Source of the DNA: a virus
Lineage: Duplodnaviria; Caudoviricetes
Virus record (IMG/VR): IMGVR_UViG_3300010429_001696
Span: 1 to 64,000 of that record
DNA length: 64,000 nucleotides
Direction: 5' to 3' (one strand)
Part shown: one piece after another, positions 828 to 45,649 of the stretch
How positions within the stretch are numbered: position 1 is the first letter of the stretch
How the letters are laid out: each line of letters begins with the position of its first letter
Made by a program: the position numbers and the translations under genes
Notes under the pieces: generated by a model
What the model saw: only the letters and a program-made list of their open reading frames with translations
Told to the model about the DNA's origin: nothing
The model's database searches: none

Positions 828-3800
828 ATGAAGAAATTATTGATGATATTAAGTCACTGTTCAACAGGTGGGATGCCTCAAGTTGCTTGTAAAAGAATTG
901 AATTAATAAAAAATGACATAGATGTCTATGTTGTTGAATATGATAACATATCCGATCATTTCATCATTCAAAAAAATAGAATAAAAAAACTTTTAAAATC
1001 AAATCATTTTTTCACTCTTGGTAAAGATAAATTTGAGCTTCTTGATATAATAGAAAAAATACAACCAGATTATATCCACATGGAGGAAATGCCAGAATTG
1101 TTCATGTCATATGATCTAGCCACTGAATTATATAAGAAAGATAGAAAATACAAAATTTTTGAGACAACACATTCATCTGATTTTAACACAGATGACAAGA
1201 CTTTTTATCCAGATAAATTTCTTTTTGTTTCGCAATATAACTGTTATAAATTTAATAAATTCGGCATACCAACAGAAGTAATTGAATATCCGGTTGAAAA
1301 GAATAAAGTTAGTCAAGAAGTCAAATTAGAAAAAATGCGAAAATTGGGGCTAGATCCTAAATTCAAACATGTAGTGAATGTTGGACTTTTTACTCCTAGA
1401 AAAAATCAGGCATACGCTTTTGAAATAGCCAGAAAACTTGTGGATCAGCCAATAAAATTTCATTTCATTGGAAATCAAGCTGATAATTTCAAAACTTACT
1501 GGGAGCCGTTGATGAAAAATAAACCCAACAATTGTGTTTTATGGGGTGAAAGAGATGATGTAGATGATTTTTTGGACGCTTGTGATTTGTTTTTATTTAC
1601 TTCTATGGGATTTCGTTGGAACAAAGAATTGAATCCACTTGTTATAAAGGAAGCTCTTCAACACCAAATACCACAATTTTTATTTCCTCTGGATGTTTAT
1701 AATAGAAAATATGATATTGAAGAAACTATTCATTATTTAAAGGGAGATCCTGATATAGATAATAGACTTATAAGAGATTTTCTTTTTGAAAGAAAAAATG
1801 TTCCTTGGAATAATAAAAATGTTAAATACAAAATCAGGGCTGTTCATCTTTTATTGGAAGAAGATGATAGAAAATCAGAATCTATAAAAAATATAGAAAA
1901 ATTAAAAGATTATGGCATAGATTATGTTCAACATATAAACAAAAGATATACACAAGATCCACCAAAAGAAAATTGTGCTCGTCCGCAAGATGTTGGTAGA
2001 ATTGGAGCTTATTCTTTACGAGGACCGCATTACGGAAACTACACATCATTTAAAAATGCCATATTATCAGAGTTCACGGATGATATTGATTTTTTGATGG
2101 TTTTCGAATCAGATTGTATATTAAATGTGCCTGTAGAAGAATTTGCTGAAAAAATATACAAAGCTTGCGATTATATTCTCAAAGAAAGAATATATTATAT
2201 GTCATTTGGTGATGATCGCAATCTTAGGACTGGCGAAACAGTGTCCTCTGTTGAAAGAAAAATAGATGATGTCGATTGGATGTATATAACAAATAAAATT
2301 ATTGGTATTCAATCAATTATGTTTCCAAAATTTGCCAGAAATTATATAAACAGAGCTTATAGTACAACTTTATGGGATGTGTCGGATTTGATGTTCAATG
2401 ATATGTTTAGCTCAAAAACAAAAGGTATCGCTCCAAGATTAACTACCCAGATAGAGGGAATATCTACTATACAAGGTGAAAAAATACAGCATTTTTTATT
2501 GAAAGACATTAATAATTTTGTGAATGATAAATCTCCAAATGATGTTGTTATAGAGTATAATAAAAATGATAATAGATTTCATTTGTGTCTAAGCGATTTT
2601 TATCAAAAAGATATTAATAACATAAGAGTTGTGGTCCATATGGATGAAAATAAAAATGTTTTTGATACAACAACTACCCTATCGCCTTGGGGTTCGATAT
2701 GGATAGAACTATATGAAACATCAAAACATAATGATTTTTACTTTGATATTTATTATATGGATAAATTTCTATTCACAAAACATATGAGACTTGATAATGT
2801 TAGAGAAAAAAAGAGCATAGATGATATTGAAAAAATGTTAAATGAAATTAGAGAAAAAGAAAATGAGAGAGAAGTGAAAGAAATCGATCCAGAATTATTT
2901 ATTGTTAGTTATGATAAGACAGATGATAAAATTTATTTATCATATAAAGGTGATGGAGAACCAGTTTTCAATATTAAAATTAAAAATATTAAAAGTGGGG
3001 ATGTTGTTTTTGATCAAAAAGAAACTCAATTTTCTAAAGAATTTAATAACTGGATAAAATTAGACAATAGAAATCCTTATGGTTATGAAATAATTTATAA
3101 TAATACGGATGATTTGTTCTTGTTCTCCAAAGATTTGATATTGATGAAAATAGAAGCGGTGGTGGAAGATAGAAAAGAGTATAAAGAAATTCATAGAGAA
3201 ATTCAACCTGTTGTAGAAAGAAAAATCTCATCATCAAATTTCATAGATGAAGATATTTACTTGGTTATGACTTATCCAGATACAAAGATTAAAGAGAATA
3301 TAACCAAACAATGTTTAAATAGTCTGAAAAACAATGGTAAAAAAATAATATTAGCATCTCATTATCCAGTTGATAAAGAATTACAGGCGATGGCAGATTA
3401 TTATTTATATGATTCTTATAATCCGTTGATCAATCACACATTGTATAATTATTATTGGTCAATGATACCCGAGGGGAAAGTAGAAATATATCTGGATAAA
3501 ATTGATCAAAAATATCAATTAAATCAATCTCTTACTGTTCTGAATAATATCAAAAACGCAACTACTTTTGCTTATAAAATGGGATATAAAAATCTTATTT
3601 CAATAAGTTATGATTTTATTTTCAGTGAAGCGGATTTAAGTAAAATTGATGACATTTGTGATAGACTAAGAAAATATGAAAAGAATGGTTATTTTATGAG
3701 ATTTAAAGAAGGTGATATGACTTTATTAAAAAGTGTCTTCTTTATAACAAATTTGGAATTTTTTGAAAAAACATTTTCTAATCCTCGAACACCTGAGGAA

Positions 3801-5267
3801 TATAATAAAGAATGCTCACAGCTTGGGGTGAACAATTTCTTGGAGAACTATTTCTATAAGAAGCTCATTGATTATGAAGACGATCTTCTTATAGCGGACA
3901 CAAATGAAGATGAATTATTTAAAAATTCAAAAATAAATTTATTTTCTGGAGTTGAATATTTGACTTTACTGCCCGTTAAAAACGACAAAAGAAGTTTCAT
4001 TGTTTGGTTTAATTCGTCCAACATAACAGACAATAGAAGAATAGAATTTGAATATAAGAATGGAGATTTTATTGAGAGATCAACTCATTATATAAAAGAT
4101 CGAACATATTATATGAAAAAAATAACATTAAATGATGGAGATAATTATTCTATAACTGCAAAATTTATTGATTCTGTTAATAATCAAATTATATCAGTAA
4201 AAAATTATAATGTCAATTTGAATAATATTAATGATTTAAACATATATGGTGTTTTTACAGACAATAAAATAAAATCATCCTCAATAGAAGATAATTTTAC
4301 AATAAAATTTGATCCCGAGACAAATAACATATATTTCAAATCCATTGAAGATTTTCAGGGGAAAATATCCGTGATGGATTCTTATTCAAAAACAGCTTTT
4401 CATTGGTCAAAAACAAATATGAACAAGAATATTGAATATTATATAAATCCAATACCAAAGGGGGCTTTTGATTTTGAAAAAGATCCATATATCAATGGAT
4501 TTGATATATCATTCTATGATATGGATGACAATTTCTTATTTAACAAAATAATACCAACAAAAAAAGAGCCCGTGAATGTCGACGCTGTTATTCCACTAGG
4601 AATCACACCTTTTGACTGTTTATATTTTTTATGGAGAGATTTCTTTATTAATAAAACTTATGATGATTTTTTAAACAAAATAGGACTAGGAATAGAAACT
4701 GTTGTTGATCTTGGTGCCAATCAGGGTTTATTTACATATCTGATGTTGTTAAGAGGGGCTGAAGATATATATGCTGTCGAGGCTGTGAAGTCTTGTTGTG
4801 ATAACATGGAAAAAATGTTTAAAGATAATGATAATGTTTTTATTATTAATAAAGCCATATCAGATGATAATTCTATGGTTGATATATTTGTTAATCGTGT
4901 GAATACAACAGTGAGTTGTAGAGATCTGGAAAAATGTAAAAAACATCTTCCAAATTCAATAGATGGATATGATAAAATTTCAGTAGAAGGAATAACAATA
5001 AACAATTTAATAAAAGAAAAAAACATAGATAGAATAGATTTGTTGAAAGTTGATATTGAAGGAGATGAATATATGATGTTTGATACCATAACATATCGAA
5101 ATCTAATGAAGATAGAAAATATGATAATAGAGTTCCATCACAATCAAAATAATGATCTGGATTTAATTTTAAATAGATTAAAAGAAAATGGTTTCCATTA
5201 TCAAATAGTCAAACTTGATGATAATAATGGAGGAACTTTATATGTTTCAAAAAATAATATTTTTTAA
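828..5267 (+). CDS. Multidomain glycosyltransferase (GT-B N-terminus) with C-terminal FkbM-type methyltransferase
   Basis: GGMPQ, VGLFTPRKNQ, GERDDVDDFLDACDLFLFTS..ELNPLVIKEA (GT4-like); C-terminal VVDLGANQG...LLKVDIEGDE...IEFH. Confidence 0.85.
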   Translation: MKKLLMILSHCSTGGMPQVACKRIELIKNDIDVYVVEYDNISDHFIIQKNRIKKLLKSNHFFTLGKDKFELLDIIEKIQPDYIHMEEMPELFMSYDLATELYKKDRKYKIFETTHSSDFNTDDKTFYPDKFLFVSQYNCYKFNKFGIPTEVIEYPVEKNKVSQEVKLEKMRKLGLDPKFKHVVNVGLFTPRKNQAYAFEIARKLVDQPIKFHFIGNQADNFKTYWEPLMKNKPNNCVLWGERDDVDDFLDACDLFLFTSMGFRWNKELNPLVIKEALQHQIPQFLFPLDVYNRKYDIEETIHYLKGDPDIDNRLIRDFLFERKNVPWNNKNVKYKIRAVHLLLEEDDRKSESIKNIEKLKDYGIDYVQHINKRYTQDPPKENCARPQDVGRIGAYSLRGPHYGNYTSFKNAILSEFTDDIDFLMVFESDCILNVPVEEFAEKIYKACDYILKERIYYMSFGDDRNLRTGETVSSVERKIDDVDWMYITNKIIGIQSIMFPKFARNYINRAYSTTLWDVSDLMFNDMFSSKTKGIAPRLTTQIEGISTIQGEKIQHFLLKDINNFVNDKSPNDVVIEYNKNDNRFHLCLSDFYQKDINNIRVVVHMDENKNVFDTTTTLSPWGSIWIELYETSKHNDFYFDIYYMDKFLFTKHMRLDNVREKKSIDDIEKMLNEIREKENEREVKEIDPELFIVSYDKTDDKIYLSYKGDGEPVFNIKIKNIKSGDVVFDQKETQFSKEFNNWIKLDNRNPYGYEIIYNNTDDLFLFSKDLILMKIEAVVEDRKEYKEIHREIQPVVERKISSSNFIDEDIYLVMTYPDTKIKENITKQCLNSLKNNGKKIILASHYPVDKELQAMADYYLYDSYNPLINHTLYNYYWSMIPEGKVEIYLDKIDQKYQLNQSLTVLNNIKNATTFAYKMGYKNLISISYDFIFSEADLSKIDDICDRLRKYEKNGYFMRFKEGDMTLLKSVFFITNLEFFEKTFSNPRTPEEYNKECSQLGVNNFLENYFYKKLIDYEDDLLIADTNEDELFKNSKINLFSGVEYLTLLPVKNDKRSFIVWFNSSNITDNRRIEFEYKNGDFIERSTHYIKDRTYYMKKITLNDGDNYSITAKFIDSVNNQIISVKNYNVNLNNINDLNIYGVFTDNKIKSSSIEDNFTIKFDPETNNIYFKSIEDFQGKISVMDSYSKTAFHWSKTNMNKNIEYYINPIPKGAFDFEKDPYINGFDISFYDMDDNFLFNKIIPTKKEPVNVDAVIPLGITPFDCLYFLWRDFFINKTYDDFLNKIGLGIETVVDLGANQGLFTYLMLLRGAEDIYAVEAVKSCCDNMEKMFKDNDNVFIINKAISDDNSMVDIFVNRVNTTVSCRDLEKCKKHLPNSIDGYDKISVEGITINNLIKEKNIDRIDLLKVDIEGDEYMMFDTITYRNLMKIENMIIEFHHNQNNDLDLILNRLKENGFHYQIVKLDDNNGGTLYVSKNNIF

Positions 5268-5297
5268 AAGATTTGAATAAAAAAATAATAACATTAA

Positions 5298-7445
5298 ATG
5301 AAAATAGCACAGATAAATTTAGGATTAATTGAAATACCACCAAAAAGCTGGGGAGCTATCGAAAAGGTTATATGGAACTATAAACTTGAATTAGAGAAGC
5401 TTGGAAATCAAGTAGATATAGTTTATCCTTGGGAATTATATGATGGAGATAAATTAAAATATGATATTGTTCATTTTCATGCTGCCAATCAAGCGATAGA
5501 TACTTGGCGAGATTCAGGTCTCCCGTATGTGTTTTCGACACACGATCACCATGTGGTTAGATATGGCAAGTCATCTTCATTATATTCTAAGAATTTTTTA
5601 GCTATGAAGCAATCTGTGGCTTCAATAACTTATGCTGAGTTTTTGGTGGATTATTTTGATAAAACGGACAAACTTTATTATATACCACATGGAGTTGATA
5701 ATAAGATATATAGAGATAAAGGAATAAGAAATTCATCAAAACACAAACTTTTATGTGTTGCAAATAATGGTTATGCTGATGATCCAAAAAGTGATAGAAA
5801 AGGATTTAGATATGCCATTGAGGCCGCTAGAATGTTGAACATGGATATAACAATAGTTGGACCCGAGAACAACATGAATTTTTTCAGAGCCAATGATGAT
5901 CTATTGTCTTATGATAAATTAAAAATGATAAAAGATCCAAATGAAGAAGAGCTTGTGAATATTTATAACGAGCATACTATATTTTTGCATCTTTCTGAAT
6001 TAGAAGCGGGTCACCCAAATCTTACTTTACTCGAAGCGATGGCTTGCGGACTGCCTATAATTGGAACTTATAACGGTAAACGTCCTCTAATGGGCCTCGT
6101 TAAATGTAGTAGAAACTCAAAGGAAGTTAAAATGAAAATAGAAGAAGTTATTCAAAATTGGGATGAATATCATCAACTAGCCTTAGAAACTGGAAAGAAA
6201 TATGATTGGTCGAATGTAGTTAAAGAATTAAATGATTTTTATACATTTACTGTTTCTGTTAATAATACATATAGTAATGAAGATGTTAGACAAAGAGTTG
6301 TAAAAGCTTATGAAAATTCTACTCAAACTATAAGGGACTCAGTTGTGCCAAAAACAAAATTTAATATAAATTTTAATGATGGAGCATTTATCGAAATGTT
6401 GTCTCCTATAGATAAAAAAATAAAAGTGGATTTCATCGATAAAGACACAAATAATGTTGTTTATAACCTGAATATGGGATCGAACACTTGGGCAAAAACC
6501 AACACAAAATATTATAAAAATTGGCGAGTAAAAGTAAGTGGTGATGAAGAATTTACATATGAGATGGAATTAAAAGGTAGCAATGTTCTCATCGATTTTC
6601 AAAGCAGCTCGATAGGGGATACTTTGGCTTGGATACCTTATGCTGAGGAATTTAGAAAAAAACACGAGTGTGTTGTTTATTGCTCTATACATAACAATTT
6701 AGAAAAACTTTTTGAAAACGAATACAAAGATATTATATTCATAAAACCTGGCACTCAAATTGATTATTTATATGCGACATATAAACTAGGATGGTTTTCG
6801 CCACCTTGGGGTGGAAGCCGTGATGTTCATCCAAACGATTATAGAACAATGCCGCTACAAAAAACAGCATCTGATATACTTGGGCTAGATTATAAAGAAA
6901 TAGTGCCAAAAATAACAATACCAAAACAAGGAAGACCCATAGGTAGAAAATATGTTGTCATAGCCGAATATTCAACAGCCAATGCCAAACATTGGTTATA
7001 TCCAGGTGGATGGCAAAAAATAGTCAATTGGTTGAAAGAGAACGGATTAGAGGTTATGGTTATAAGCAAACAAGATACTAATTTAAAAGGAGTTATAAAA
7101 GAAACAGGCGACATGCCTTTAGAAAAAAGAATAAATCAAATAAATCATTCAGAATTTATGATAACTATCGGAAGTGGGCTGGCTTGGATAGCATGGGCTG
7201 TTGGCAAAAAAGTTGTTATGATCTCTGGCTTCAGTAAGCCGTTCTGCGAATTTAAATCAAATTGCATTAGAATAATAAACGAAAATGTTTGTAATGGATG
7301 TTTCAATGATGAAAGATATGAATTTGATAGAGGGGATTGGAATTGGTGTCCAGCACATAAAGACACTTCAAGAATGTTTGAATGCACGAAAACCATAACG
7401 CCAGAATTTGTCATGGAAGAAATAAAAAAGAATAATTTGTTGTAA
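5298..7445 (+). CDS. GT4 glycosyltransferase fused to TibC/Aah-like autotransporter heptosyltransferase domain
   Basis: WGAIEK and EAGHPNLTLLEAMACGLP; C-terminal SSIGDTLAWIPYAEEF, GSGLAWIAWAVGKKVVMISGFS and Cys cluster CNGC...WCPAH...FECTKTI. Confidence 0.85.
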   Translation: MKIAQINLGLIEIPPKSWGAIEKVIWNYKLELEKLGNQVDIVYPWELYDGDKLKYDIVHFHAANQAIDTWRDSGLPYVFSTHDHHVVRYGKSSSLYSKNFLAMKQSVASITYAEFLVDYFDKTDKLYYIPHGVDNKIYRDKGIRNSSKHKLLCVANNGYADDPKSDRKGFRYAIEAARMLNMDITIVGPENNMNFFRANDDLLSYDKLKMIKDPNEEELVNIYNEHTIFLHLSELEAGHPNLTLLEAMACGLPIIGTYNGKRPLMGLVKCSRNSKEVKMKIEEVIQNWDEYHQLALETGKKYDWSNVVKELNDFYTFTVSVNNTYSNEDVRQRVVKAYENSTQTIRDSVVPKTKFNINFNDGAFIEMLSPIDKKIKVDFIDKDTNNVVYNLNMGSNTWAKTNTKYYKNWRVKVSGDEEFTYEMELKGSNVLIDFQSSSIGDTLAWIPYAEEFRKKHECVVYCSIHNNLEKLFENEYKDIIFIKPGTQIDYLYATYKLGWFSPPWGGSRDVHPNDYRTMPLQKTASDILGLDYKEIVPKITIPKQGRPIGRKYVVIAEYSTANAKHWLYPGGWQKIVNWLKENGLEVMVISKQDTNLKGVIKETGDMPLEKRINQINHSEFMITIGSGLAWIAWAVGKKVVMISGFSKPFCEFKSNCIRIINENVCNGCFNDERYEFDRGDWNWCPAHKDTSRMFECTKTITPEFVMEEIKKNNLL

Positions 7446-12861: not shown

Positions 12862-12901
12862 ATAAATATATATTCAATGAAATATCGTATGTTTTTGAAA
12901 G

Positions 12902-12973
12902 TTGAGATGAAAAGATTCGAACTTTTATCGGGTGATCCAAGAGTCACTAATGATGCCATTGCACCACATCTCA
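12902..12973 (-). tRNA. Atypical tRNA with 8-nt anticodon loop (CUCUUGGA; Lys-CUU or Gln-like)
   Basis: TGAGATG/CATCTCA acceptor, AAAAG-TTCGAAT-CTTTT T arm, GTGA/TCAC anticodon stem. Confidence 0.7.
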
Positions 12974-12976
12974 GAG

Positions 12977-13048
12977 TGGCGAGAGGGAATTTCGAAATCC
13001 CGGCCTAGCGAATATGAGTCGCTTGTTCTGCCTCTGAACTACCTCGCC
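12977..13048 (-). tRNA. tRNA-Met/Ile2 (CAT)
   Basis: GGCGAGG...AGCGA-CTCATAT-TCGCT...TCTCGCCA. Confidence 0.9.
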
Positions 13049-13160
13049 ATAATATTTTACAGAATACTTTTTTTGGACATATTTAAAAGACATGTTTTGG
13101 TTTTTTGTTGCTGTAAGTATTCTTTAGTTGTTTTGCTCATTAGATACCAGATTTTATTAG

Positions 13161-13233
13161 TTGCCCTGTCAGAGTATGATTCTGAATCTCAACATTCAAA
13201 GTGTTGCGTGATAGCCAATTTCACTACAAGGCA
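13161..13233 (-). tRNA. tRNA-Gln (TTG), non-canonical T loop ATCATAC
   Basis: TGCCTTG/CAGGGCA acceptor, CAACA-CTTTGAA-TGTTG. Confidence 0.85.
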
Positions 13234-13240
13234 GTATATC

Positions 13241-13492
13241 TTATATATTATATTTTTCGTATGTCTTCACCCATTTTTTAATCGCATTTCCACTAACGCC
13301 ATATTTTCTCCCAACACCACATAAACCAAATTCATCAATCTCATTTTTTAATTGCTCAAATGATGGTCTATCTACCTTTCTTCTAGATACAAAAGAATTC
13401 TTTATGTTGTTTTCTTTCTGTTTCAGTATAGACTTAAAATCATCTGGGATATACTTCTTAAATTCATTTAAAAAATCAAGATAATATTTCAT
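13241..13492 (-). CDS. Small protein: leader plus HTH like the C-terminus of phage HNH endonucleases
   Basis: MKYYLDFLNEFKKYIPDD; RRKVDRPS...GVGRKYGVSGNAIKKW. Confidence 0.65.
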   Translation of the reverse strand: MKYYLDFLNEFKKYIPDDFKSILKQKENNIKNSFVSRRKVDRPSFEQLKNEIDEFGLCGVGRKYGVSGNAIKKWVKTYEKYNI

Positions 13493-13559
13493 AAGGTTTT
13501 TAATTATATATTAAAAAATAATGATTTGGTTTAAATTTCAACATTTCAAAGAACTTTTG

Positions 13560-13645
13560 AGTCGACGGTCAGACTCGAACTGACATGCCTTTCGGTTTTT
13601 ACAATTTTGCAGATTGCTGGCTATTTCCAATTCACCCACGTCGAC
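13560..13645 (-). tRNA. tRNA-Cys (GCA) with enlarged variable region
   Basis: GTCGACG/CGTCGAC-T, GCAAT-CTGCAAA-ATTGT, variable AAAAACCGAAAGGCAT. Confidence 0.85.
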
Positions 13646-14526
13646 AAATTATTTAAATATTTTTGTTCATATTTTTTAATATCTTCTAAAAACCACACCT
13701 CAAAATCTAATCCTAATTTTTTTGCTGATTCCCATTTATTATAATCATCTTCTTTTATCCTGCCCTTTATCTCTAAATTTTTAATGCTATCATTGTTATT
13801 TATGATTCGAAAATCTATGATATAAGTGTGTTCATTTTTATCGATTCCAATATATTTTATTCTAACCTTACCATATTCCCAATCTTTGATCAAATTGATT
13901 TCTTTCATTTTATCTAAAATATAACAAGCTCTTAATTCATATGTTCCTTGAACTCTGATATCTTTATATTCTAACCATTTTGTTGTTCCACCAGCAACAT
14001 AATTCTTTCCAGTGTCGTAAGATTTTTTATTTACTTTGCTCCAATTTATATTAGAATTATGAACAGTTAACCATCCTCCTCTTTTTTTAGATGCACAACT
14101 AATACTGCAATATTTTTGATTTCTCTTAGCCCATTTTATTTCAAATTCTTTTTCACAATATTCACACTTTAATAATACTGTGTGACTATGGCATCCTTTA
14201 TCAGTCAAAGTTTTAGAAATTTTGTTTTTTGTTTCATCACTATGATTTCTGGAATTGGCGCATTTTCTTGAGCAGAATTTATTATATTTCCCTTTATCAA
14301 AATCGTTTTCAGTGATTCTAATATAGAAAATATTATTACATTTAGAACATTTTTGTTTTAATTCTATTCTTTTTGATTTTTCAACACCTTTAAATTTTTC
14401 TGAATTTTTTCTAATTCTCTCTTCTTTTTTGGGGTTTGAATCACAATTTGAAACATGTAAAGCATATAAACATTGTTTATCAACTTCTATTAATTTGTTA
14501 CACCATTTACAAATTTTACTATACAT
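13621..14526 (-). CDS. Zn-finger plus PD-(D/E)xK (TnsA-like) free-standing homing endonuclease
   Basis: Likely start MYSKICKWC at 14526; CxxC/FCSRKCANSR/YCSISCA motifs; QGTYELR..YIIDFRII..LEIKGR; 3' end overlaps tRNA-Cys. Confidence 0.75.
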   Translation of the reverse strand: MYSKICKWCNKLIEVDKQCLYALHVSNCDSNPKKEERIRKNSEKFKGVEKSKRIELKQKCSKCNNIFYIRITENDFDKGKYNKFCSRKCANSRNHSDETKNKISKTLTDKGCHSHTVLLKCEYCEKEFEIKWAKRNQKYCSISCASKKRGGWLTVHNSNINWSKVNKKSYDTGKNYVAGGTTKWLEYKDIRVQGTYELRACYILDKMKEINLIKDWEYGKVRIKYIGIDKNEHTYIIDFRIINNNDSIKNLEIKGRIKEDDYNKWESAKKLGLDFEVWFLEDIKKYEQKYLNNLSTWVNWK

Positions 14527-14605
14527 AATTATATATATAAAAATTTGCCGGTTCATAATAGAATCGAACTTAATATTTCCAATAATTTCAAAGAACTTAT
14601 CTAAG

Positions 14606-14908
14606 CGGTGCCGACCGGGCTCGAACCGGCGACTTCCTGCGTGCATTTTTTAAAACCTTTTTGTTTCCAAAAAGTTAGGACTATATCATCATCTCAGAGA
14701 GATGTTGGATGCTAATTTGGTATTATATTATATTGCTATAACCCCCAATAGTCTCTGCACCTTCCGTCTCTGACGGCTTGGCTCAGGATTACCATCTTTT
14801 TAAAAAAGTTAGGCTTCCCTGAATTCATCCAATTTTTCAATCATTATCGCTAATGAAAGCTGCCACTTCTGACAGGCAGGCATTCTAAACCAACTGAACT
14901 ACAGCACC
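14606..14908 (-). tRNA. tRNA-Asp (GTC) interrupted by group I intron
   Basis: 5' exon GGTGCTGTAGTTCAGTTGGTTTAGAATGCCTGCCTGT (14908-14872) plus 3' exon CACGCAGGAAGTCGCCGGTTCGAGCCCGGTCGGCACCG (14643-14606). Confidence 0.92.
14644..14871 (-). ncRNA. Group I intron (IC-like, ORF-less, 228 nt) at anticodon position 35/36
   Basis: Follows U, ends in G; core motifs AATTCAGGGAAGCC, GGTAATCCTGAGCCAAG, GTGCAGAGACTA, GATATAGTCC. Confidence 0.9.
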
Positions 14909-14978
14909 ATATTTTTTCAAAGCCAATAAATTAGCAAAGAAAATTAATTTTTTATCAATATTTCAATGAACTATTATG

Positions 14979-15063
14979 CGTCCCAGGAAGGATTCGAACC
15001 TACGTTGGATTTTCATCGTCGGGTTAACAGCCCGGACCGTTCGACCACTACGGCAACTGAGAC
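14979..15063 (-). tRNA. tRNA-Asn (GTT) with long variable arm
   Basis: GTCTCAG/CTGGGAC-G, CGGG-CTGTTAA-CCCG, variable arm GAT-GAAA-ATC. Confidence 0.85.
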
Positions 15064-15068
15064 TTTTG

Positions 15069-15155
15069 CGGTCCCTACGGGATTCGAACCCGTCTGAGAT
15101 ATTTCTATCAACCGATGTGACAGACCGGCAGCCACGCCTAGCAGCCCCAGAGACC
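15069..15155 (-). tRNA. tRNA-Asp (GTC) with long variable arm
   Basis: GGTCTCT/AGGGACC-G, CCGGT-CTGTCAC-ATCGG, variable arm GATA-GAAA-TATC. Confidence 0.85.
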
Positions 15156-15159
15156 AGAG

Positions 15160-15233
15160 TAGTCAAGGGCGGACTCGAACCGCCAGCCACGACTTTATCA
15201 GAGTCGCAATCTAACCAATTGATATACTTGACT
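15160..15233 (-). tRNA. tRNA-Ile (GAT)
   Basis: AGTCAAG/CTTGACT-A, CGACT-CTGATAA-AGTCG. Confidence 0.92.
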
Positions 15234-15263
15234 ATGCAATAATTTCAAAGAACTTAAAATTTG

Positions 15264-15333
15264 TGCCGCCGGAAGGATCTCGAACCTTCGCGCCGAGGTT
15301 TTACAGACCTGTCGCCTACCCTGGGTCGTCGGC
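15264..15333 (-). tRNA. Atypical tRNA-Tyr (GTA): short variable loop, weak D arm, 8-nt T loop
   Basis: GCCGACG/CGGCGGC-A, AGGT-CTGTAAA-ACCT, GAAGG-TTCGAGAT-CCTTC. Confidence 0.7.
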
Positions 15334-15350
15334 AATTCTAAAAAGATAAA

Positions 15351-15529
15351 AAAATTGTCTGCTCATTCCAAGTATGAAATAAAGTTTCTGGACATATCCT
15401 ATTAGGGACTTCACCAGAATGCAAGTCTACCTGACCTTTATCTTACTAAGCGAATTGACGTTTTCTTGGAAAAACTATGACAATCTTTCTGAAGGATTAT
15501 CATCGATTCACTTTTCACCAGACAATTTT
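15351..15529 (-). ncRNA. Unidentified multi-branched structured RNA (~180 nt)
   Basis: 11-bp closing stem AAAATTGTCTG/CAGACAATTTT; internal stems TGATAATC/GATTGTCA, GTTTT/AAAAC, TTCTGG/CCAGAA, AGATAAAG/CTTTATTT; no ORF; inside tRNA operon. Confidence 0.65.
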
Positions 15530-15532
15530 ATA

Positions 15533-15628
15533 AAAAATGTGTGTTCCAACATGAAACCGTAGGACTTTTTCCGTCTGATTACCGGAACCTGTGGGACACT
15601 GGGAATCGAACCCTCACCACACATTTTT
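15533..15628 (-). ncRNA. Unidentified structured RNA (~95 nt) with T-loop hairpin
   Basis: Closing stem AAAAATGTGTG/CACACATTTTT, GGG-TTCGATT-CCC, TTCCG/CGGAA. Confidence 0.6.
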
Positions 15629-15898
15629 AATCTCATTTTTTCAAAGAACTATTTTTTTATTATATTTTTTATATTTTTAACTTTTAACTTCAACCATCTT
15701 TTATTTCTAACAACCGTTCTATCTTTATCATTCAACTCCACTTTTTCGCCATCCCATATGCCAGTTAAATATATTTTTATGGATTTTCTACCATTTGAAT
15801 AATCATATTTAGAATCAACATATTCAACAAGATCCCCTTCCTCTATTTCATTATAATTTTTTTTATCATTGCTCCTTTCTTATTATATTTTTTAAAAC

Positions 15899-15932
15899 AA
15901 AAAAACCCAATCTTTTATTTCAGATTGGGTTT
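15899..15932 (-). terminator. Attenuator terminator of tRNA operon 1
   Basis: AAACCCAATCT-GAAATAAA-AGATTGGGTTT followed by TTTTGTTTT. Confidence 0.85.
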
Positions 15933-15960
15933 ATAAAAACTAAGCTATATGCAAAATGAT

Positions 15961-16023
15961 TCACCCAATCAGAATTTTCATTTGATCGTCATAAATATTC
16001 ATATAATTACACATAGTTTTCAT
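15961..16023 (-). CDS. Leader peptide 1, MKTMCNYMNIYDDQMKILIG
   Basis: 20-codon ORF whose end (GATTGGGTGA) is complementary to the terminator 5' arm; codons match downstream tRNAs. Confidence 0.8.
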   Translation of the reverse strand: MKTMCNYMNIYDDQMKILIG

Positions 16024-16030
16024 AATTGCT

Positions 16031-16120
16031 CGTTTATTATATATTGTATTAAAAAAGTCGTTTTTTTCCGTTTTTGTTTTAATTATACGACAAAATTACT
16101 AAAAAGTTTCAAAATAAAAA
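16031..16120 (-). promoter_or_regulatory. Promoter module 1 (TAATTTTG element plus AATATATA element)
   Basis: ~90 bp near-duplicate of 17789-17880; TAnnTTTG at 16091-16098. Confidence 0.7.
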
Positions 16121-16139: not shown

Positions 16140-16418
16140 TTAAAAAACTCCGTTATCTTCGCCATATGTTGCATTCCAATAGATTATATCTTTTATATCT
16201 ATAATTACATCATCTAAAGTTTTTACTCTATAAGGCCTAGCTCTTTTTAATTCATCTGGTGTGAAAATTCTATGATTATACATTTTCATTGCTTTTTCAG
16301 CCTTATCATTTGTCTCCTCACAAAAATTTTCAGCTTCTTTTATGTCTGTAAAAATATGATAAAAGATTGTATCATCTGGTGTTATAACTACATAAATTTC
16401 ACTCGTTTCATATCTCAT
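16140..16418 (-). CDS. Hypothetical protein
   Basis: Open ORF in a minus-strand gene run. Confidence 0.6.
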   Translation of the reverse strand: MRYETSEIYVVITPDDTIFYHIFTDIKEAENFCEETNDKAEKAMKMYNHRIFTPDELKRARPYRVKTLDDVIIDIKDIIYWNATYGEDNGVF

Positions 16419-16511
16419 CGTTTTTTTTTATTTTTTTTATCTAGGGCTTTTGTGGTCTTTCTACGAAATCTTCACCGAAAGGATCATCCGTATTAAATGC
16501 TTCAAATTTTT

Positions 16512-17117
16512 TCATGTTAATTTATCATTTTCCTTATCAGATATTCTATTAACAAAATATGTATTGTCTTGTGGAAGTTTTTTTGAAACATTAAAAGAAT
16601 GAATTTCATTTTTATATTTCAATCTCAGATAATTCTCTCTGTTTTTATCAATCTGGATGCATTGAAATATCGTTATCACCATGGCCAACATAGATATAAT
16701 AAATCCATTAATAGAGCCCTGATCATTTATTCCTCTAAAGAAACATATAATATAAAATATGAATATGGCTGCTGTTAATATGATTGCTCCGGTTGTGAAA
16801 ATTCCAATTTCTTCATTTTTCTTATCCAAAAAAATATTAAATATAAAATTTATTCCTTTATCATAAAACTTTTTTATTTTATTTAAAATGTTGAATCTTT
16901 CTCCAATCTGTTCTATTTTATCAATATCTATTATATTATTGCTAAAATATTCTAATATCATTTTCTGATATTTTGGACTCAAACTACTAAAAACATTAAC
17001 TATCTTATTTCTTATACCATCATCATTTATATACTTGTTTATTAATTTCAAATCGAAATCGATGGTATTGTTCTCGGCTAAGAATTCATCATAATTTTTC
17101 ATTTTCCTATCTTTCAT
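16512..17117 (-). CDS. Hypothetical membrane protein with T4 CTS-like leader
   Basis: MKNYDEFLAE; two hydrophobic segments. Confidence 0.65.
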   Translation of the reverse strand: MKDRKMKNYDEFLAENNTIDFDLKLINKYINDDGIRNKIVNVFSSLSPKYQKMILEYFSNNIIDIDKIEQIGERFNILNKIKKFYDKGINFIFNIFLDKKNEEIGIFTTGAIILTAAIFIFYIICFFRGINDQGSINGFIISMLAMVITIFQCIQIDKNRENYLRLKYKNEIHSFNVSKKLPQDNTYFVNRISDKENDKLT

Positions 17118-17396: not shown

Positions 17397-17476
17397 TTGT
17401 GGTGGAGGGATTTGAACCCTCATACACCAGATTACGCTTTTAATGCATGTTTATAAGACATGTGCGATACACCACA
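17397..17476 (-). tRNA. tRNA-Ile (TAT)-like, lacking a normal D arm
   Basis: TGTGGTG/CACCACA-A, 7-nt connector, CATGT-CTTATAA-ACATG, 24-nt extra region, GAGGG-TTCAAAT-CCCTC. Confidence 0.75.
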
Positions 17477-17482
17477 ATATTG

Positions 17483-17558
17483 TACTCCCGATGGGACTCG
17501 AACCCACAACTTCCGCCTTGAAAGGGCGGCGACTTTAAACCAGTTCGTCTACAGGAGC
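17483..17558 (-). tRNA. tRNA-Glu (TTC)
   Basis: GCTCCTG/CGGGAGT-A, CCGCC-CTTTCAA-GGCGG. Confidence 0.92.
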
Positions 17559-17566
17559 TTATGATT

Positions 17567-17640
17567 TGGTAGCCTGTTTGGAAATCGAATCCAAATTGTC
17601 GATGTGAGAAACCGATCTCCTGCCATTAGAGGAACAGGCC
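17567..17640 (-). tRNA. tRNA-Glu (CTC) with encoded CCA
   Basis: GGCCTGT/ACAGGCT-ACCA, TCGGT-TTCTCAC-ATCGA. Confidence 0.88.
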
Positions 17641-17676
17641 ATATATTTTTTTTTCAAAGAACAATCAAAACATAAC

Positions 17677-17703
17677 AAAAAACCCAATCTTTTTTGATTG
17701 GGT
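17677..17703 (-). terminator. Attenuator terminator of tRNA operon 2
   Basis: ACCCAATC-AAAAAA-GATTGGGT followed by TTTTTGTT. Confidence 0.85.
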
Positions 17704-17738
17704 CTCTTATATAAAAAAGCATATAAAAATATTCCCAA

Positions 17739-17789
17739 TCAAGTTGGCGAGTTTTCTATCTCTTCATATATGTTAAAATTTTTCATCAT
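17739..17789 (-). CDS. Leader peptide 2, MMKNFNIYEEIENSPT
   Basis: Contains ATA TAT GAA GAG ATA GAA; stop lies within TTGATTGGG, complementary to the terminator 5' arm. Confidence 0.8.
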   Translation of the reverse strand: MMKNFNIYEEIENSPT

Positions 17790-17880
17790 TTATTATATAT
17801 TGTATTTAAAAAGTCGTTTTTTTCCGTTTTTCGTTTCAATTATAGCACAAAATTACTAAAAAGTTTTAAATAAAAAAAAT
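17789..17880 (-). promoter_or_regulatory. Promoter module 2 (duplicate of module 1)
   Basis: TAnnTTTG at 17848-17855, then AAAACGGAAAAAAACGACTTTTT..AATACAATATATAATAAA. Confidence 0.7.
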
Positions 17881-18130: not shown

Positions 18131-18182
18131 AATGAAGCAAAATTATAAAAAAAGTTTGAAATAAAAAATTTTTTAAAAAAGT

Positions 18183-41798: not shown

Positions 41799-43136
41799 AT
41801 GAAGAAATTCGGTAATTTTCTAAATGAGGATGCTGAGCCTAAGGAGCTTGTGAAAATGATATTTTCTGATGATTTCAAGAAAACATTAACGAATATACTT
41901 GAGGTAAGGCAAAGTAATATATCAAAAAGATTACTAGAACTTCCTAAATCGGACCAGAAGTTTGACATATCTTATGTTGATATTGATGAGGAAAAAGATT
42001 CTGTTACCTATTTGACTATCAATAGAATAGAAAGATTAAAAAAAGAAGGGGCACTGCCCGATGAGTACTGGAAAACAAAATTAAGAGACACAACAAAAAT
42101 AGGTAGATTTGTTAAAAAGATATTTGGTTCGAAATTTAATGAAAAAAGCGTCAATGCTTTCGCCGATAAATTCAAAACTATGTCTGGCTCAGACCAAAAT
42201 CTTCATAAATTTGAAATAGTTGATGGGGATGATTTGATTTATTGGTACAATAGAAATAATTATTCGGAGAAAATTGGTACTCTTGGGGCTGATGTAATGT
42301 CATACAATGCGTCGAGCATTTATTTGAATATGTATAGTAAAAATCCTAAAAAATGTAAGTTATTGATATTGAAAAGTGATACCAATGATAAAAGAATTAT
42401 AGGACGAGCTCTTTTATGGAAATTAACTACTCCAAGTGATAAAATCTTTATGGATAGAGTTTATTCCACAAAATCATCTCATGTTGATTTATTTATAAAT
42501 TATGCTAAAAGAGAGGGATGGTTATATAAAGGCGAGCAAGTATACGGAGATTCTCCTATCGTTAATGATGGAGTTGATAGAAACATTAAAATGCATGTTG
42601 AAATAGATAACACGGACTTTAAATATTATCCTTTCGTTGACACTTTGAGATATTATTATCCAAATCTAAAAATATTAGCCAATCACAAAGAATTAGATGA
42701 TATAATATATACCTTGAATGACGAGAATGGTAAATATCAAGAATATGAATGGGATAGTGAAAAGGGATTTAAAAAAGATCCAACTGTTTTCGATTCTAAT
42801 GCTTCTAAGGATATAAATTTTCGAGATGCTATGTGGTGCGAGGTTGACAATGCTTATTGTGGAAAAAGAGATGCGGTTTTTCTATCCTATAAAAATGTAT
42901 ATGCTTTACCGAAATCAGATAAAATAGTATATTCAGAGTATCAAAAAAGGTATTATTTAAAAGAAGATTGCGTTTGGTCTGAGCCATTAAAAAGTTGGAT
43001 ATGGAATAAATATGCTGTTGATGTTTATCACGATAAAGACAGAACAACCGATCCAGATAAAGTTCATCGTTTTGAAGTGAACAGATCTATTAAAAAGGTG
43101 GGCGATTATTGGTACGACATAGACTTAGATATCTAA
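41799..43136 (+). CDS. SCM/GRAL/MDRIY family, paralog 3 (Cys lost)
   Basis: GTLGADVM..IGRALLWK..MDRVY..PFVDT; leader MKKFGNFLNE. Confidence 0.75.
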   Translation: MKKFGNFLNEDAEPKELVKMIFSDDFKKTLTNILEVRQSNISKRLLELPKSDQKFDISYVDIDEEKDSVTYLTINRIERLKKEGALPDEYWKTKLRDTTKIGRFVKKIFGSKFNEKSVNAFADKFKTMSGSDQNLHKFEIVDGDDLIYWYNRNNYSEKIGTLGADVMSYNASSIYLNMYSKNPKKCKLLILKSDTNDKRIIGRALLWKLTTPSDKIFMDRVYSTKSSHVDLFINYAKREGWLYKGEQVYGDSPIVNDGVDRNIKMHVEIDNTDFKYYPFVDTLRYYYPNLKILANHKELDDIIYTLNDENGKYQEYEWDSEKGFKKDPTVFDSNASKDINFRDAMWCEVDNAYCGKRDAVFLSYKNVYALPKSDKIVYSEYQKRYYLKEDCVWSEPLKSWIWNKYAVDVYHDKDRTTDPDKVHRFEVNRSIKKVGDYWYDIDLDI

Positions 43137-45649
43137 GTTGTGAATCTATTTATTATATAACAAATATAACTTATTTCATCCTTGCTTATTTGATGATTGT
43201 TTGGTAAATATAGACCATATTTGTCGACCAGCACAGAATTTAACATATCTTTATTTTCACCATATAAATCTAGCCAAAATGGTTGTTTTGTTATAGCCCC
43301 ACAGATTAATGGCCTGGTTTCTATATCAGCTTCATTTAATGATTTGACAATTTCTTTGATACGAGGATGTATTATGGGGTAGGCAAAATTTGATATAAAA
43401 CAATTTTTTGGAGGAGATAATTTCCAATATTGATTTTCTATCAAATTGTCATATAATTTAAAATTTTCATTTCTTTTATTTATAATAAATTCTAGTTTAT
43501 CTATTTGTCTCAATCCTATAAAAGCCTGTAAATCAGTTGATCTCAAATTAAAGCCAGGATAATAAAAAGTATATAACGATTTGAAATCATCAACTGAATA
43601 TTTTTCTCTCATCTTCTGTTTGTATTCGCTGCTCCAATCTCTATCCCACCCATGAGATCTTATGGACATTAAAATGTTGTATAATTTCACATCGTCCGTT
43701 GAAACAAATCCACCTTCTATCGTGGAGTTGTGCAAACATATGGGTTGATTCCCACCGACAAAATTCTCTAAATTTTTTACACTAAAATCAAACACGTATT
43801 CATATTCTGGCGATATTTCTTCAATACTTCTAATTTTAATTGGAATGATATCACCGTTTTTGAATTTATCAAGATTCTCTTTTATTCCATATAGATTTAT
43901 TTTTTTATATGATTCATTGAAGATAATTTCACCATCATTATTGAATGTTATGTTGTTTAATACAAATTGATATTGTGGTTTGACATTAGATATTTTATTA
44001 CTATTTTTGAACTTCCTTTCTTTTTTGTTATTGATTGTTATTAACCCACCATTTAATCCTATGATATTACACAAATAAGATATGTCTGTTATCAACTTTT
44101 CGGAAACGCTTGTGACACTAATTCGATTTTTTCCTTTAATGGTGCCGTCGCCGGAGAAATATGCGTATAAAAAAGATATTATGCATTCATTGCTGCTATG
44201 AAATATAAATGATGGTATTCTTTTATTAGATGCCCCAGATTTTATATTAAAAAAATCTTTAAATACTATTTTTAATGTTTCGGACGAAACTTTAATATTG
44301 CAAGAGTTTGTATTTTCATTGAAATTTTTATATGAATTTAATCCAAAAATAGATTTTATAGAATTTGTGACATCATCAATATATTCTTTTTCCTTTATAT
44401 CAAATGAAAAATTTAATGAAGAATCACCATACGACCCCTCAGCTAAAAAATATCCAATTAAACGGCATAATTCTTTATTTATTTTATATTTAACTGGTAT
44501 ATATTTGTCCCTTGGTGTTCTTTTTTTTGCTATTTTTAAATCATTTTTATCGGTTTTTAAATATTCAATTGGTAAAATTTTTCTTTTTTTCCAGTTATAT
44601 TTTTGTTTATTTTCTTTACTATTCCATTTGAAATGAATATCATCTAAATCTTTTATATCATAATCGATCACAAAAAACTCATTTTTCATTTTTTTACAAA
44701 AATTCAAAAAATCTAATTCTTTTTTAACATGAGGCCTTTGTATTTTTGTCGGAACAAAAATATAATCATCCAGTTTTATATCACATCCTTTTACAATAGA
44801 AATATCAGATTTTTCTTTATCATATTTAAAAACACTGTGATCCTCTGTTAATTCGACAATTCTATTATTAAATAATTTTAATTGAAAAATTTTTTTATTA
44901 TCGATTTTATGTTTTAAAATGTGATCGGGACTCACATATATTGTCTTATAGTTTTCATCAAACGATAATATTTTTATTTTTGACACATCAGAGTTATATT
45001 TATTGTAAATTTCATCAATATTTTCTATATTAAAAATGTTATTCTCATCCAGATAAGGTATTGGAGTTTTTGGGGACACTGACATATGGTGCCCCATATA
45101 TAGACTAAAACTACTCATCGAGCCAAAACAACCAGTTTGAATGTTCTCATAAGTCGAGCCGATTGATTCGCAAGAATCTTCCAATAAAATAACATCATAC
45201 TTTAAACAAAGATCCATTATTTCTGTCATTTTATTAGGGGTGCCTAAAACATGAACTATGATCAGAGTGGCGGGTTTTTCTTTTTCAAATATTTTTTCAA
45301 GTGCTTCTATATTAATGCCCAATGTGTCCATTTCTATATCGCAAACTATTGGCTCATATCCAAGTTGTATGAAGGGAGATATAGTAGTCACCCAAGATAC
45401 ATCTGGAAAAACAATTTTTTTATTTTTTAAATATCCACTTTGTAGCAAAGCATATGCCATTGCTAGATTGGCGGATGAGCCAGAGTTTAAATAAACAGAA
45501 TATTTTCTTCCCAGAAAATTAGACCATTTCTTTTCTAATTCAATGGTTAATTCTCCCTTTGTTAATCTGGGATATGGATAAGTTTGTAACCAGATGACCA
45601 GTTCGTCTATATCTTTCTTGTCTATTGTGTCATTTACTAGTTTAATCAT
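43133..45649 (-). CDS. ColD-like PLP enzyme (DegT/DnrJ family; GDP-4-keto-6-deoxymannose 3-dehydratase-like) with intein
   Basis: NSGSSANL, LLEDSCES, SFSLYMGHHM^STIEGG, SHGWDR, GFNLRSTDLQA; 386-aa extein. Confidence 0.85.
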   Translation of the reverse strand: MIKLVNDTIDKKDIDELVIWLQTYPYPRLTKGELTIELEKKWSNFLGRKYSVYLNSGSSANLAMAYALLQSGYLKNKKIVFPDVSWVTTISPFIQLGYEPIVCDIEMDTLGINIEALEKIFEKEKPATLIIVHVLGTPNKMTEIMDLCLKYDVILLEDSCESIGSTYENIQTGCFGSMSSFSLYMGHHMSVSPKTPIPYLDENNIFNIENIDEIYNKYNSDVSKIKILSFDENYKTIYVSPDHILKHKIDNKKIFQLKLFNNRIVELTEDHSVFKYDKEKSDISIVKGCDIKLDDYIFVPTKIQRPHVKKELDFLNFCKKMKNEFFVIDYDIKDLDDIHFKWNSKENKQKYNWKKRKILPIEYLKTDKNDLKIAKKRTPRDKYIPVKYKINKELCRLIGYFLAEGSYGDSSLNFSFDIKEKEYIDDVTNSIKSIFGLNSYKNFNENTNSCNIKVSSETLKIVFKDFFNIKSGASNKRIPSFIFHSSNECIISFLYAYFSGDGTIKGKNRISVTSVSEKLITDISYLCNIIGLNGGLITINNKKERKFKNSNKISNVKPQYQFVLNNITFNNDGEIIFNESYKKINLYGIKENLDKFKNGDIIPIKIRSIEEISPEYEYVFDFSVKNLENFVGGNQPICLHNSTIEGGFVSTDDVKLYNILMSIRSHGWDRDWSSEYKQKMREKYSVDDFKSLYTFYYPGFNLRSTDLQAFIGLRQIDKLEFIINKRNENFKLYDNLIENQYWKLSPPKNCFISNFAYPIIHPRIKEIVKSLNEADIETRPLICGAITKQPFWLDLYGENKDMLNSVLVDKYGLYLPNNHQISKDEISYICYIINRFTT
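43727..45082 (-). mobile_element. Intein (452 aa) with LAGLIDADG homing endonuclease
   Basis: Begins SVSPKTPI; block B VELTEDHSVF; LIGYFLAEGS and FLYAYFSGDG; ends VFDFSV..NFVGG..CLHN followed by Ser. Confidence 0.92.

Follow-up and report, generated by a model that had tools for sequence, protein, structure and literature searches.

Leader-peptide attenuation is a textbook device of amino-acid operons, and the tRNA genes of bacteria and phages are thought to be controlled by their promoters. In the enterobacterial attenuators (trpL, hisL, leuL, pheL and the multivalent thrL and ilvL/ivbL) a short open reading frame (ORF) rich in regulatory codons is followed at once by an intrinsic terminator, and the leader RNA adopts either the 1:2 and 3:4 pairings or the exclusive 2:3 pairing. 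Leaders of the thrL and ilvL type sample several amino acids each. All of these control biosynthetic enzymes, whereas pheM, the leader of Escherichia coli pheST, attenuates a component of translation according to the supply of charged tRNA; it controls a synthetase and responds to one amino acid. T-box riboswitches also sense tRNA status through a choice between terminator and antiterminator in a 5′ leader, but they bind uncharged tRNA, act without translation and control synthetase, biosynthesis and transport genes. Here we describe a locus of an uncultured phage, IMG/VR record IMGVR_UViG_3300010429_001696 (193,754 bp, 28.6% G+C, CheckV completeness 92%), in which a short leader ORF, an antiterminator and a terminator precede an operon of nine tRNA genes. 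The window analysed is the first 64 kb of the record. On the strength of its sequence and of folding models, this locus is probably a ribosome-mediated transcription attenuator of the trp/his type that gates a phage tRNA operon and would be derepressed by slow codon decoding.

The locus resembles the enterobacterial systems in its codon-enriched leader ORF, its intrinsic terminator and an exclusive antiterminator, one strand of which would be occluded by a ribosome near the stop codon. It differs from them in that the modules would control tRNAs in place of biosynthetic enzymes, in that the leaders carry up to a dozen different codons and track isoacceptors, and in being viral, found in Bacteroidota-type phages, followed by boxA and without sequence homology to the enterobacterial leaders. 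Compared with pheM, the product would be the tRNA itself, which makes the feedback direct. No leader gave an Rfam match to the T-box, whether the gathering threshold or a relaxed limit of E ≤ 1 or E ≤ 5 was applied, and the leaders are too short for one. With rRNA-operon antitermination (boxA, NusB/S10) the phage shares the motif, which here follows each attenuator and recurs between the tRNAs as a downstream accessory of the proposed switch, not as its sensor. Full-text literature searches returned no report of leader-peptide attenuation of tRNA genes, and what we describe appears to be a classical mechanism applied to a new kind of target, tRNA genes, under a new feedback logic.

Codon content of the first leader

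Leader ORF 1 (15961–16023; ATG at 16023, TGA at 15963–15961) has 20 codons and encodes the peptide MKTMCNYMNIYDDQMKILIG. It lies on the minus strand, as do all leader, terminator and tRNA features of modules 1 and 2 in the window. Downstream, ARAGORN and Rfam together place the operon 1 RNA genes at 12901–15333 (minus strand), where two protein ORFs are interspersed among nine tRNAs in the order Tyr(GUA), Ile(GAU), Asp(GUC), Asn(GUU), Asp(GUC, with an intron), Cys(GCA), Gln(UUG), Met(CAU) and an odd tRNA. Nine is also the number given in an earlier sequence-only reading of this DNA, and it includes both the Tyr and the odd tRNA. The tRNA-Tyr(GUA) gene (15333–15264) was detected by Rfam only, at 27.2 bits against a cut-off of 29 bits. 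The CAU tRNA has a G1-C72 pair and is therefore not an initiator.

Codons 4–15 of the leader (ATG TGT AAT TAT ATG AAT ATT TAT GAC GAT CAA ATG) form the putative sensing run. The sequence-only reading held that all of them are decodable by tRNAs of the leader's own operon, and the ARAGORN and Rfam calls confirmed this: 12/12 can be read by the downstream Met(CAU), Cys(GCA), Asn(GUU), Ile(GAU), Asp(GUC), Gln(UUG) and Tyr(GUA). Over the entire leader, 14 of 19 codons are readable by operon 1 tRNAs. The decodable set makes up 31% of the codons in 133 long ORFs of the phage, and 31% is also what base composition alone predicts. Under this usage the chance of 12 consecutive decodable codons (p^12) is 8e-7, so that ~0.2 runs would be expected genome-wide in six frames. 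One run of at least 12 was observed in the six frames of the 193,754-bp genome, and it is leader 1; five runs of 10 decodable codons occur elsewhere in the genome.

Two subsidiary suggestions of the earlier reading found no support. A link between the leader's Lys and the CUU-containing tRNA fails on the codons, since the leader uses AAA, which a CUU anticodon cannot read. Tyr, Asn and Asp had also been singled out as queuosine-family tRNAs, the class cut by colicin E5-type nucleases; relatives group their tRNAs in many other ways, and the fourth member of that family (His) is absent from the block.

Terminator and antiterminator

The predicted intrinsic terminator (regions 3 and 4; 15894–15932, minus strand) starts 28 nt beyond leader ORF 1 and combines an 11-bp stem and 8-nt loop with a U tract and has a folding energy of -14.7 kcal/mol. 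Its arms are AAACCCAATCT (15932–15922) and AGATTGGGTTT (15913–15903), after which comes the T run. Two further regions lie in the leader ORF. Region 1, GACGAUCAAAUG (15979–15990, minus strand), covers codons 12–15 and in the untranslated RNA is predicted to pair with region 2, according to the minimum free energy structure of the full leader. Region 2, UGAUUGGGUG (15962–15971, minus strand), overlaps the last codons and the stop and is the antiterminator strand, able to form a duplex with the 5′ arm of the terminator. An 8-bp pairing between the end of the leader and the 11-bp terminator had been pointed out beforehand, and it is exact: GATTGGGT (15970–15963), in the last codons and stop, is the complement of ACCCAATC in the 5′ arm. 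The duplex between region 2 and this arm has an energy of -13.0 kcal/mol compared with -5.5 for shuffled sequences (z = -3.6).

When the module 1 RNA is cut before the 3′ arm of the terminator it folds as the antiterminator GAUUGGGU:ACCCAAUC (-12.4 kcal/mol). The same alternation is predicted for leaders 1 and 3, both of which form a long 1:2 hairpin plus the terminator at full length, and the antiterminator in versions ending before the terminator 3′ arm. By the criteria used, 18 terminator-like hairpins exist genome-wide, and three of them adjoin the upstream ends of the only three tRNA clusters in the genome.

The effect of a ribosome was simulated by placing a 30-nt mask at each A-site codon and folding the transcript up to the terminator loop. 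In module 1 the predicted probability that the terminator 5′ arm is paired upstream is 0.29 without a ribosome, 0.72 for stalls at codons 2–13 and 0.60 at codon 14, and 0.28 for a ribosome at codon 15 to the stop. Module 3 behaves in the same manner, with an antiterminator probability of 0.30 when free, 0.92 for stalls up to codon 15 and about 0.3 thereafter. For module 2 the value is 0.88 both without a ribosome and for stalls as far as codon 11, and drops to about 0.3 close to the stop. In all three modules the end of the matched codons coincides with the footprint boundary.

The folding of module 2 as an antiterminator without a ribosome is also what a translation-independent RNA switch would show, that is, a T-box-like leader that binds a tRNA or a protein and whose ORF is incidental. 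No Rfam family, the T-box included, was found on the leaders, which show neither a specifier loop nor other T-box anatomy. Moreover, only the codons of the reading frame track the tRNA sets, and they are placed where a footprint would matter. We therefore regard a switch of this kind as extremely unlikely, and the ribosome-mediated attenuator as the better account of these structures.

Two sister modules in the same genome

The genome contains three homologous modules, one per tRNA cluster, each consisting of a promoter-like box, a leader, an antiterminator/terminator pair, boxA and tRNAs. By sequence and folding, module 2 extends over 17675–17866 (minus strand) and comprises a promoter-like box, a leader ORF, an antiterminator strand and a terminator. 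The promoter-like box and 5′ leader of module 1 are repeated almost identically in it, at 17866–17790. The 5′ untranslated leader of module 1 (16024–16081, minus strand) is A-rich and lacks a Shine-Dalgarno sequence; it is near-identical between modules 1 and 2, with an identical 22-nt core, and similar in module 3.

Leader ORF 2 (17789–17739) encodes MMKNFNIYEEIENSPT and carries ATA, GAA and GAG. Its antiterminator strand, UUGAUUGGG (17742–17734), spans the stop codon and can form 9 bp with CCCAAUCAA of terminator 2. Scans for tRNAs and motifs place a boxA (17662–17652), tRNA-Glu(CUC), tRNA-Glu(UUC) and an atypical UAU tRNA (Ile, AUA) downstream, within 17397–17662 (minus strand). When leaders 1 and 2 are aligned, AAT ATT TAT GAC GAT becomes AAC ATA TAT GAA GAG. 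These changes in the Ile and acidic codons parallel the change in tRNAs, from Ile(GAU) and Asp to Ile(UAU) and two Glu. The UAU tRNA itself (17397–17476, minus strand) has almost no D arm and a 21-nt variable region; it scores 39.7 bits in Rfam and was missed by ARAGORN.

Module 3 lies outside the window (genome 153099–152870, minus strand). Its 30-codon leader has ten Leu codons representing all six Leu codons, and 10-codon windows with all six are found genome-wide only in this leader. The tRNAs that follow are tRNA-Leu GAG, CAA, UAG and UAA. The terminator stem of module 3 is ACCCGGUC, and its antiterminator strand, UGGGACCAGGUUUUU, is changed to match (-21.4 kcal/mol). Thus, terminator stems vary among the modules (ACCCAATC versus ACCCGGTC) and the antiterminator strand co-changes.

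Modules in related phages

Relatives were collected by an IMG/VR scan for a T run followed by GTTCTTTGAAA, together with tRNA scans of five related records. About ten related contigs of uncultured phages, 75–385 kb long, supplied 28 modules in this way. Examples include the leader MRTTTQYQQQQQINPTD ahead of tRNAs Gln and Gln, MRTTLLHTLLLDRQGLLRRLMP ahead of Leu(UAA), Arg(UCU) and Leu(UAG), MKNLMNIQPQQHPQIDEWGNYV ahead of Pro, His, Pro, His, Gln and Gln, and one beginning MRAISKHSSSSKSFKFWFRKTKFG ahead of Lys, Phe, Trp, Ser, His, His and Lys. The tRNA set of a leader was defined as the tRNAs that follow it up to the next terminator. Leaders were chosen blind, as the longest ORF ending near the terminator, and this gave the wrong frame in two modules (the second of L146 and the first of L062); both were kept in the statistics, and the tests are therefore conservative.

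Over the 28 modules the mean fraction of leader codons readable by a leader's own tRNAs is 0.343, compared with 0.173 for permuted tRNA sets (z = 10, 0/20,000 permutations). The matching persists without near-duplicates (z = 9.2) and in the relatives alone (z = 7.8). The antiterminator duplex was stronger than 95% of shuffles in 21/28 modules, with its strand within the last ~45 nt of the ORF. Moreover, matched codons are enriched before the footprint boundary, at 180/422 (0.43) versus 77/307 (0.25) (p = 1e-6).

Matching extends to isoacceptors. In cases where a single codon class has a downstream tRNA, the leader uses that class, with a ratio of 17:4 for Ile ATA versus ATY and of 17:3 for Arg AGR versus CGN. 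CGN codons, seldom used by these AT-rich phages, are found in leaders where Arg(ACG) lies downstream, and AGA where Arg(UCU) does; for Ser and Leu the matching is less clear. This bears on the possibility of a classical amino-acid attenuator, in which the leader senses amino-acid starvation and the tRNA genes are an incidental output. The architecture is that of trpL, hisL, thrL and ilvL, and a stalled ribosome cannot tell a missing tRNA from missing charging. However, extra tRNA would not relieve amino-acid starvation, and the leaders follow the isoacceptor: within the same genome ATA goes with Ile(UAU) and ATT with Ile(GAU), the Arg CGN and AGA codons likewise, and the six Leu codons of leader 3 are jointly read by its four downstream isoacceptors. 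We consider a pure amino-acid sensor unlikely, and a sensor of decoding by particular tRNAs remains our preferred reading.

When the region was compared with cultured phages by BLAST, the matches were confined to tRNAs and introns; these led to Cellulophaga phage phi4:1 and to LR756501.1. In the cultured phi4:1 (NC_021788.1) three modules partition 23 tRNAs. The leader MKIQRLHLQELEQPIISGGTGV is followed by tRNAs Pro, Glu, Gln, His, Leu, Leu and Arg; a leader within the annotated gp075 (ending KVQLTKTGITVIDKTKGARAYLGDTVIG) by Ala, Lys, Ile, Gly, Met, Asp, Thr, Val, Arg and Met; and the leader MKTNYCTYNNSNWSFSYDTGSVCTLGSDGLIG by Tyr, Ser, Asn, Trp and Phe. The first and third of these leaders carry no annotation. 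The annotated start of the gp075 coding sequence (L155, NC_021788.1, 4588–4707) is a TTG inside a duplicated promoter; more likely, gp075 is a leader peptide whose start is a GTG or ATA farther downstream.

In the 735-kb uncultured phage LR756501.1, five tRNA-Leu are preceded by a leader with six Leu codons, and the stem is again ACCCAATC. This phage also has a homologue of leader 1, MKNMVRKYNDYCINDKLKMLIG, with the antiterminator CUGAUUGG:CCAAUCAG, followed by boxA and then by tRNAs Ile, Tyr-like, Cys, Ile, Asp, Asn x3, Ile, Tyr, Asp and Asp. The leader 1 ORF is thus kept in position and composition in this relative, a conservation that the sequence-only reading had named as a check. The peptide is not conserved beyond MK(T/N), and the RNA pairing is. 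A conserved position with a non-conserved peptide is as expected for a regulatory leader. Phage T5 served as a negative control: its tRNA region, with 24 tRNAs, contained no such hairpin.

These comparisons also speak to the simplest alternative, that the ORF is an independent micro-gene beside the ordinary terminator of an upstream unit, and that the codon match reflects AT-rich composition or chance. The codon set is indeed AT-rich and common, at 31% of codons, and the same-strand genes upstream (16140–17117) have no terminator of their own. On the other hand, no second run of at least 12 such codons exists in the six frames, the leaders of the three modules change with the tRNAs behind them, permuting tRNA sets among the 28 modules gives z = 10, and it is the RNA pairing and not the peptide that is conserved. 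We accord this alternative almost no credence beside a regulatory leader.

Two of the related contigs carry tRNAs with anticodons CUA and UUA, the amber and ochre suppressor types (L148 (G002), 632–705; L062, 6791–6888), which suggests stop-codon recoding in these relatives.

boxA and promoter-like elements

The first boxA of operon 1, GTTCTTTGAAA, lies at 15639–15649 (minus strand), and four more follow at 15253, 14971, 14596 and 13554. Nine copies of the motif are present genome-wide; all are on the minus strand, eight lie within tRNA operons, and the terminators of modules 2 and 3 are each followed by one. The ninth copy (GTTCTTTGAAATATTGG; genome 108239–108249, minus strand), outside the window, is not within a tRNA operon. 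We scanned 185,579 prokaryote genomes with the 16-mer GTTCTTTGAAATATTG and obtained at least 120 loci. Among the matches listed, at least 10 Bacteroidota loci have the 16-mer 60–225 nt upstream of the 16S start and behind a TAnnTTTG promoter, at least about 15 loci carry it in the 16S-23S spacer, in one case immediately behind tRNA-Ile and tRNA-Ala, and one has it inside a bacterial tRNA operon (L253). That operon, the single bacterial one examined, has no leader peptide. The positions of the extended form, GTTCTTTGAAA(TATTG), match the leaders and spacers of Bacteroidota rRNA operons. Because positions before 16S and in the 16S-23S spacer are the classical ones of boxA, we read GTTCTTTGAAA as the boxA of Bacteroidota rRNA operons; binding of Nus factors to it is assumed. 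We take it to resemble E. coli boxA, GCUCUUUAACAA. In E. coli, NusB and S10 bind boxA and make the polymerase resist termination, and by extension they may do so here. Literature searches found no printed boxA consensus that matches GTTCTTTGAAA. A role of GTTCTTTGAAA as a phage promoter or processing site was considered and rejected for this phage, in which 0/9 copies are followed by a TAnnTTTG (-7) box. We infer a Bacteroidota host because of the rRNA-type boxA, the TAnnTTTG boxes and the Cellulophaga phage relative.

The predicted promoter-like box of module 1 (16082–16109, minus strand) consists of AAACTTTTTAG and TAATTTTG, of the Bacteroidota -7 type, and then TATAAT. Copies stand ahead of leaders 1, 2 and 3, and one more ahead of a protein gene at 18157. 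An IMG/VR scan with the promoter-derived pattern TAATTTTGTNNTATAATTNAAAC found unrelated phage promoters only.

Proposed mechanism

The anatomy, the alternative structures, the codon-tRNA matching and the conservation are seen in the sequence, and from them we infer leader translation, ribosome-polymerase coupling, termination and the sensed signal. Transcription would start at the conserved promoter-like box, and a ribosome would translate the 20-codon leader as RNA polymerase nears the terminator. With Met, Cys, Asn, Tyr, Ile-AUY, Asp and Gln aminoacyl-tRNAs plentiful, the ribosome would reach the stop and cover GAUUGGGU; the terminator would then form and transcription would end at ~15900. 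Should any listed codon be slow, the ribosome would stall within codons 2–14 with the region 1:2 hairpin melted, leaving GAUUGGGU free to pair with ACCCAAUC. This would block the terminator, and the polymerase would continue through boxA, the host rRNA-operon antitermination signal, into the structured array of nine tRNAs. The tRNAs produced would relieve the stall, so that each of the three circuits would exert negative feedback on the tRNA supply of its own block.

Taken together, the uniqueness of the codon run, the pairing, the sister modules, the leader homologue in LR756501.1, the 28 modules and the footprint simulation support the central proposal of the sequence-only reading, an attenuator whose leader peptide samples the codons read by the tRNAs under its control. 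Since the leader lists several amino acids, it may act as a multivalent sensor of any of them, in the manner of thrL or ilvL. The earlier description of a multi-input OR gate is a fair one for such a leader, and the behaviour as a gate is itself conjectural.

Several points weigh against this reading. Five of the 19 leader 1 codons (AAA x2, ACT, CTG and GGG) have no downstream tRNA, the Tyr tRNA scores under the Rfam cut-off, and the CAU tRNA could be Ile2 instead of Met, which would remove 3/12 matches. The footprint model is an assumed 30-nt mask with equilibrium folding, and transcription-translation coupling in Bacteroidota is an assumption of the scheme. Module 2 has no region 1, and its leader would read through if left untranslated. 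The hairpin of module 1 may simply end the transcripts of the upstream minus-strand genes, given that they lack a terminator of their own. Finally, four to six relatives (L016, L018, L019, L021, L097 and L139) have a canonical promoter, TTTG-N18-20-TAnnTTTG, between the terminator and the first tRNA; boxA lies in its spacer, and TAnnTTTG comes 8–10 nt after boxA and 7–15 nt before the tRNA. Such relatives may make tRNAs independently, with attenuation there only supplementing basal expression.

These promoters raise the question of whether the switch is real but minor, the tRNAs being made mainly from internal promoters and the leader adding a little boxA-modified read-through or acting as an insulator. 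Besides the TAnnTTTG box between boxA and the first tRNA in the six contigs named, the leader unit of L018 that precedes a lipoprotein gene would fit such a role. In the present phage, however, none of the nine boxA copies is followed by that box, and no promoter-like site was seen between terminators and tRNAs in modules 2 and 3 (gaps of 11 and about 90 nt). Moreover, a unit without effect would not keep its codon matching across clades. A minor switch is thus very unlikely in our estimation, and attenuation of the tRNA operon itself is the reading that we retain. The L018 unit, of the same type as the others, stands ahead of the lipoprotein gene in place of a tRNA.

Other features of operon 1 and of the window

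Between the attenuator and the RNA genes is a small protein gene (15650–15868, minus strand) whose ATG is in a different reading frame from a 72-codon open stretch (P0001). The ATG has AGGAG upstream, and its frame ends after 8 codons; the 72-codon frame runs on in the -1 frame across an A8 tract (ATG ATA AAA AAA A). The break may stem from an assembly error in the homopolymer, or from slippage, either programmed or transcriptional. Between boxA and tRNA-Tyr lie two predicted structured RNAs of ~85 and ~190 nt (15345–15628, minus strand; fold z = -2.5), each with a long closing stem. The first contains a tRNA-like T-loop, GGGUUCGAUUCCC, and Rfam has no family for either RNA.

The second tRNA-Asp(GUC) gene (14605–14908, minus strand) has a 228-nt intron in its anticodon loop, which by BLAST resembles group I intron regions found in jumbo phages and in psbA of Synechococcus phage S-CBWM1. 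A 341-aa ORF (13621–14646, minus strand) that is homing-endonuclease-like, with a weak NUMOD3 match, follows. The odd tRNA (12901–12973, minus strand) has an 8-nt anticodon loop, CUCUUGGA, in which ARAGORN calls a four-base anticodon, CUUG; it may be a quadruplet decoder, a frameshift suppressor or a Lys(CUU) variant.

Elsewhere in the window, a DegT/DnrJ-type aminotransferase gene (43133–45649, minus strand) is split by an intein with a LAGLIDADG endonuclease domain (Pfam). Two very large multidomain glycosyltransferase/FkbM-methyltransferase proteins, of 1479 and 715 aa, are encoded where the record begins (828–7445, plus strand).

Significance

There appears to be a feedback loop on tRNA supply, isoacceptor by isoacceptor, in a wide group of large Bacteroidota phages that includes the culturable phi4:1. 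If this is true, it would explain how tRNA-rich phages decide when to make tRNAs. Candidates for the natural trigger are host tRNA decay, codon-usage mismatch and host anticodon nucleases. Tentatively, and with doubt outweighing confidence, we suggest that each of the three attenuators senses, for its own block, the loss of host tRNAs, whether by decay after host shut-off or by anticodon-nuclease defences. In that event only the block listing the affected codons would be induced, and the system would be an inducible, self-limiting counter-defence as well as a tRNA-homeostasis circuit, and the first case of tRNA genes autoregulated via translation of their own codons.

Small 'hypothetical proteins' in phage tRNA clusters, such as phi4:1 gp075, are probably regulatory leaders. 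If the reading proposed here is correct, such leaders would offer compact, programmable codon sensors for synthetic biology. They would moreover give a direct readout of the codons that a phage 'worries about', and a testable link of phage tRNAs to host tRNA decay and tRNA-cutting defences.
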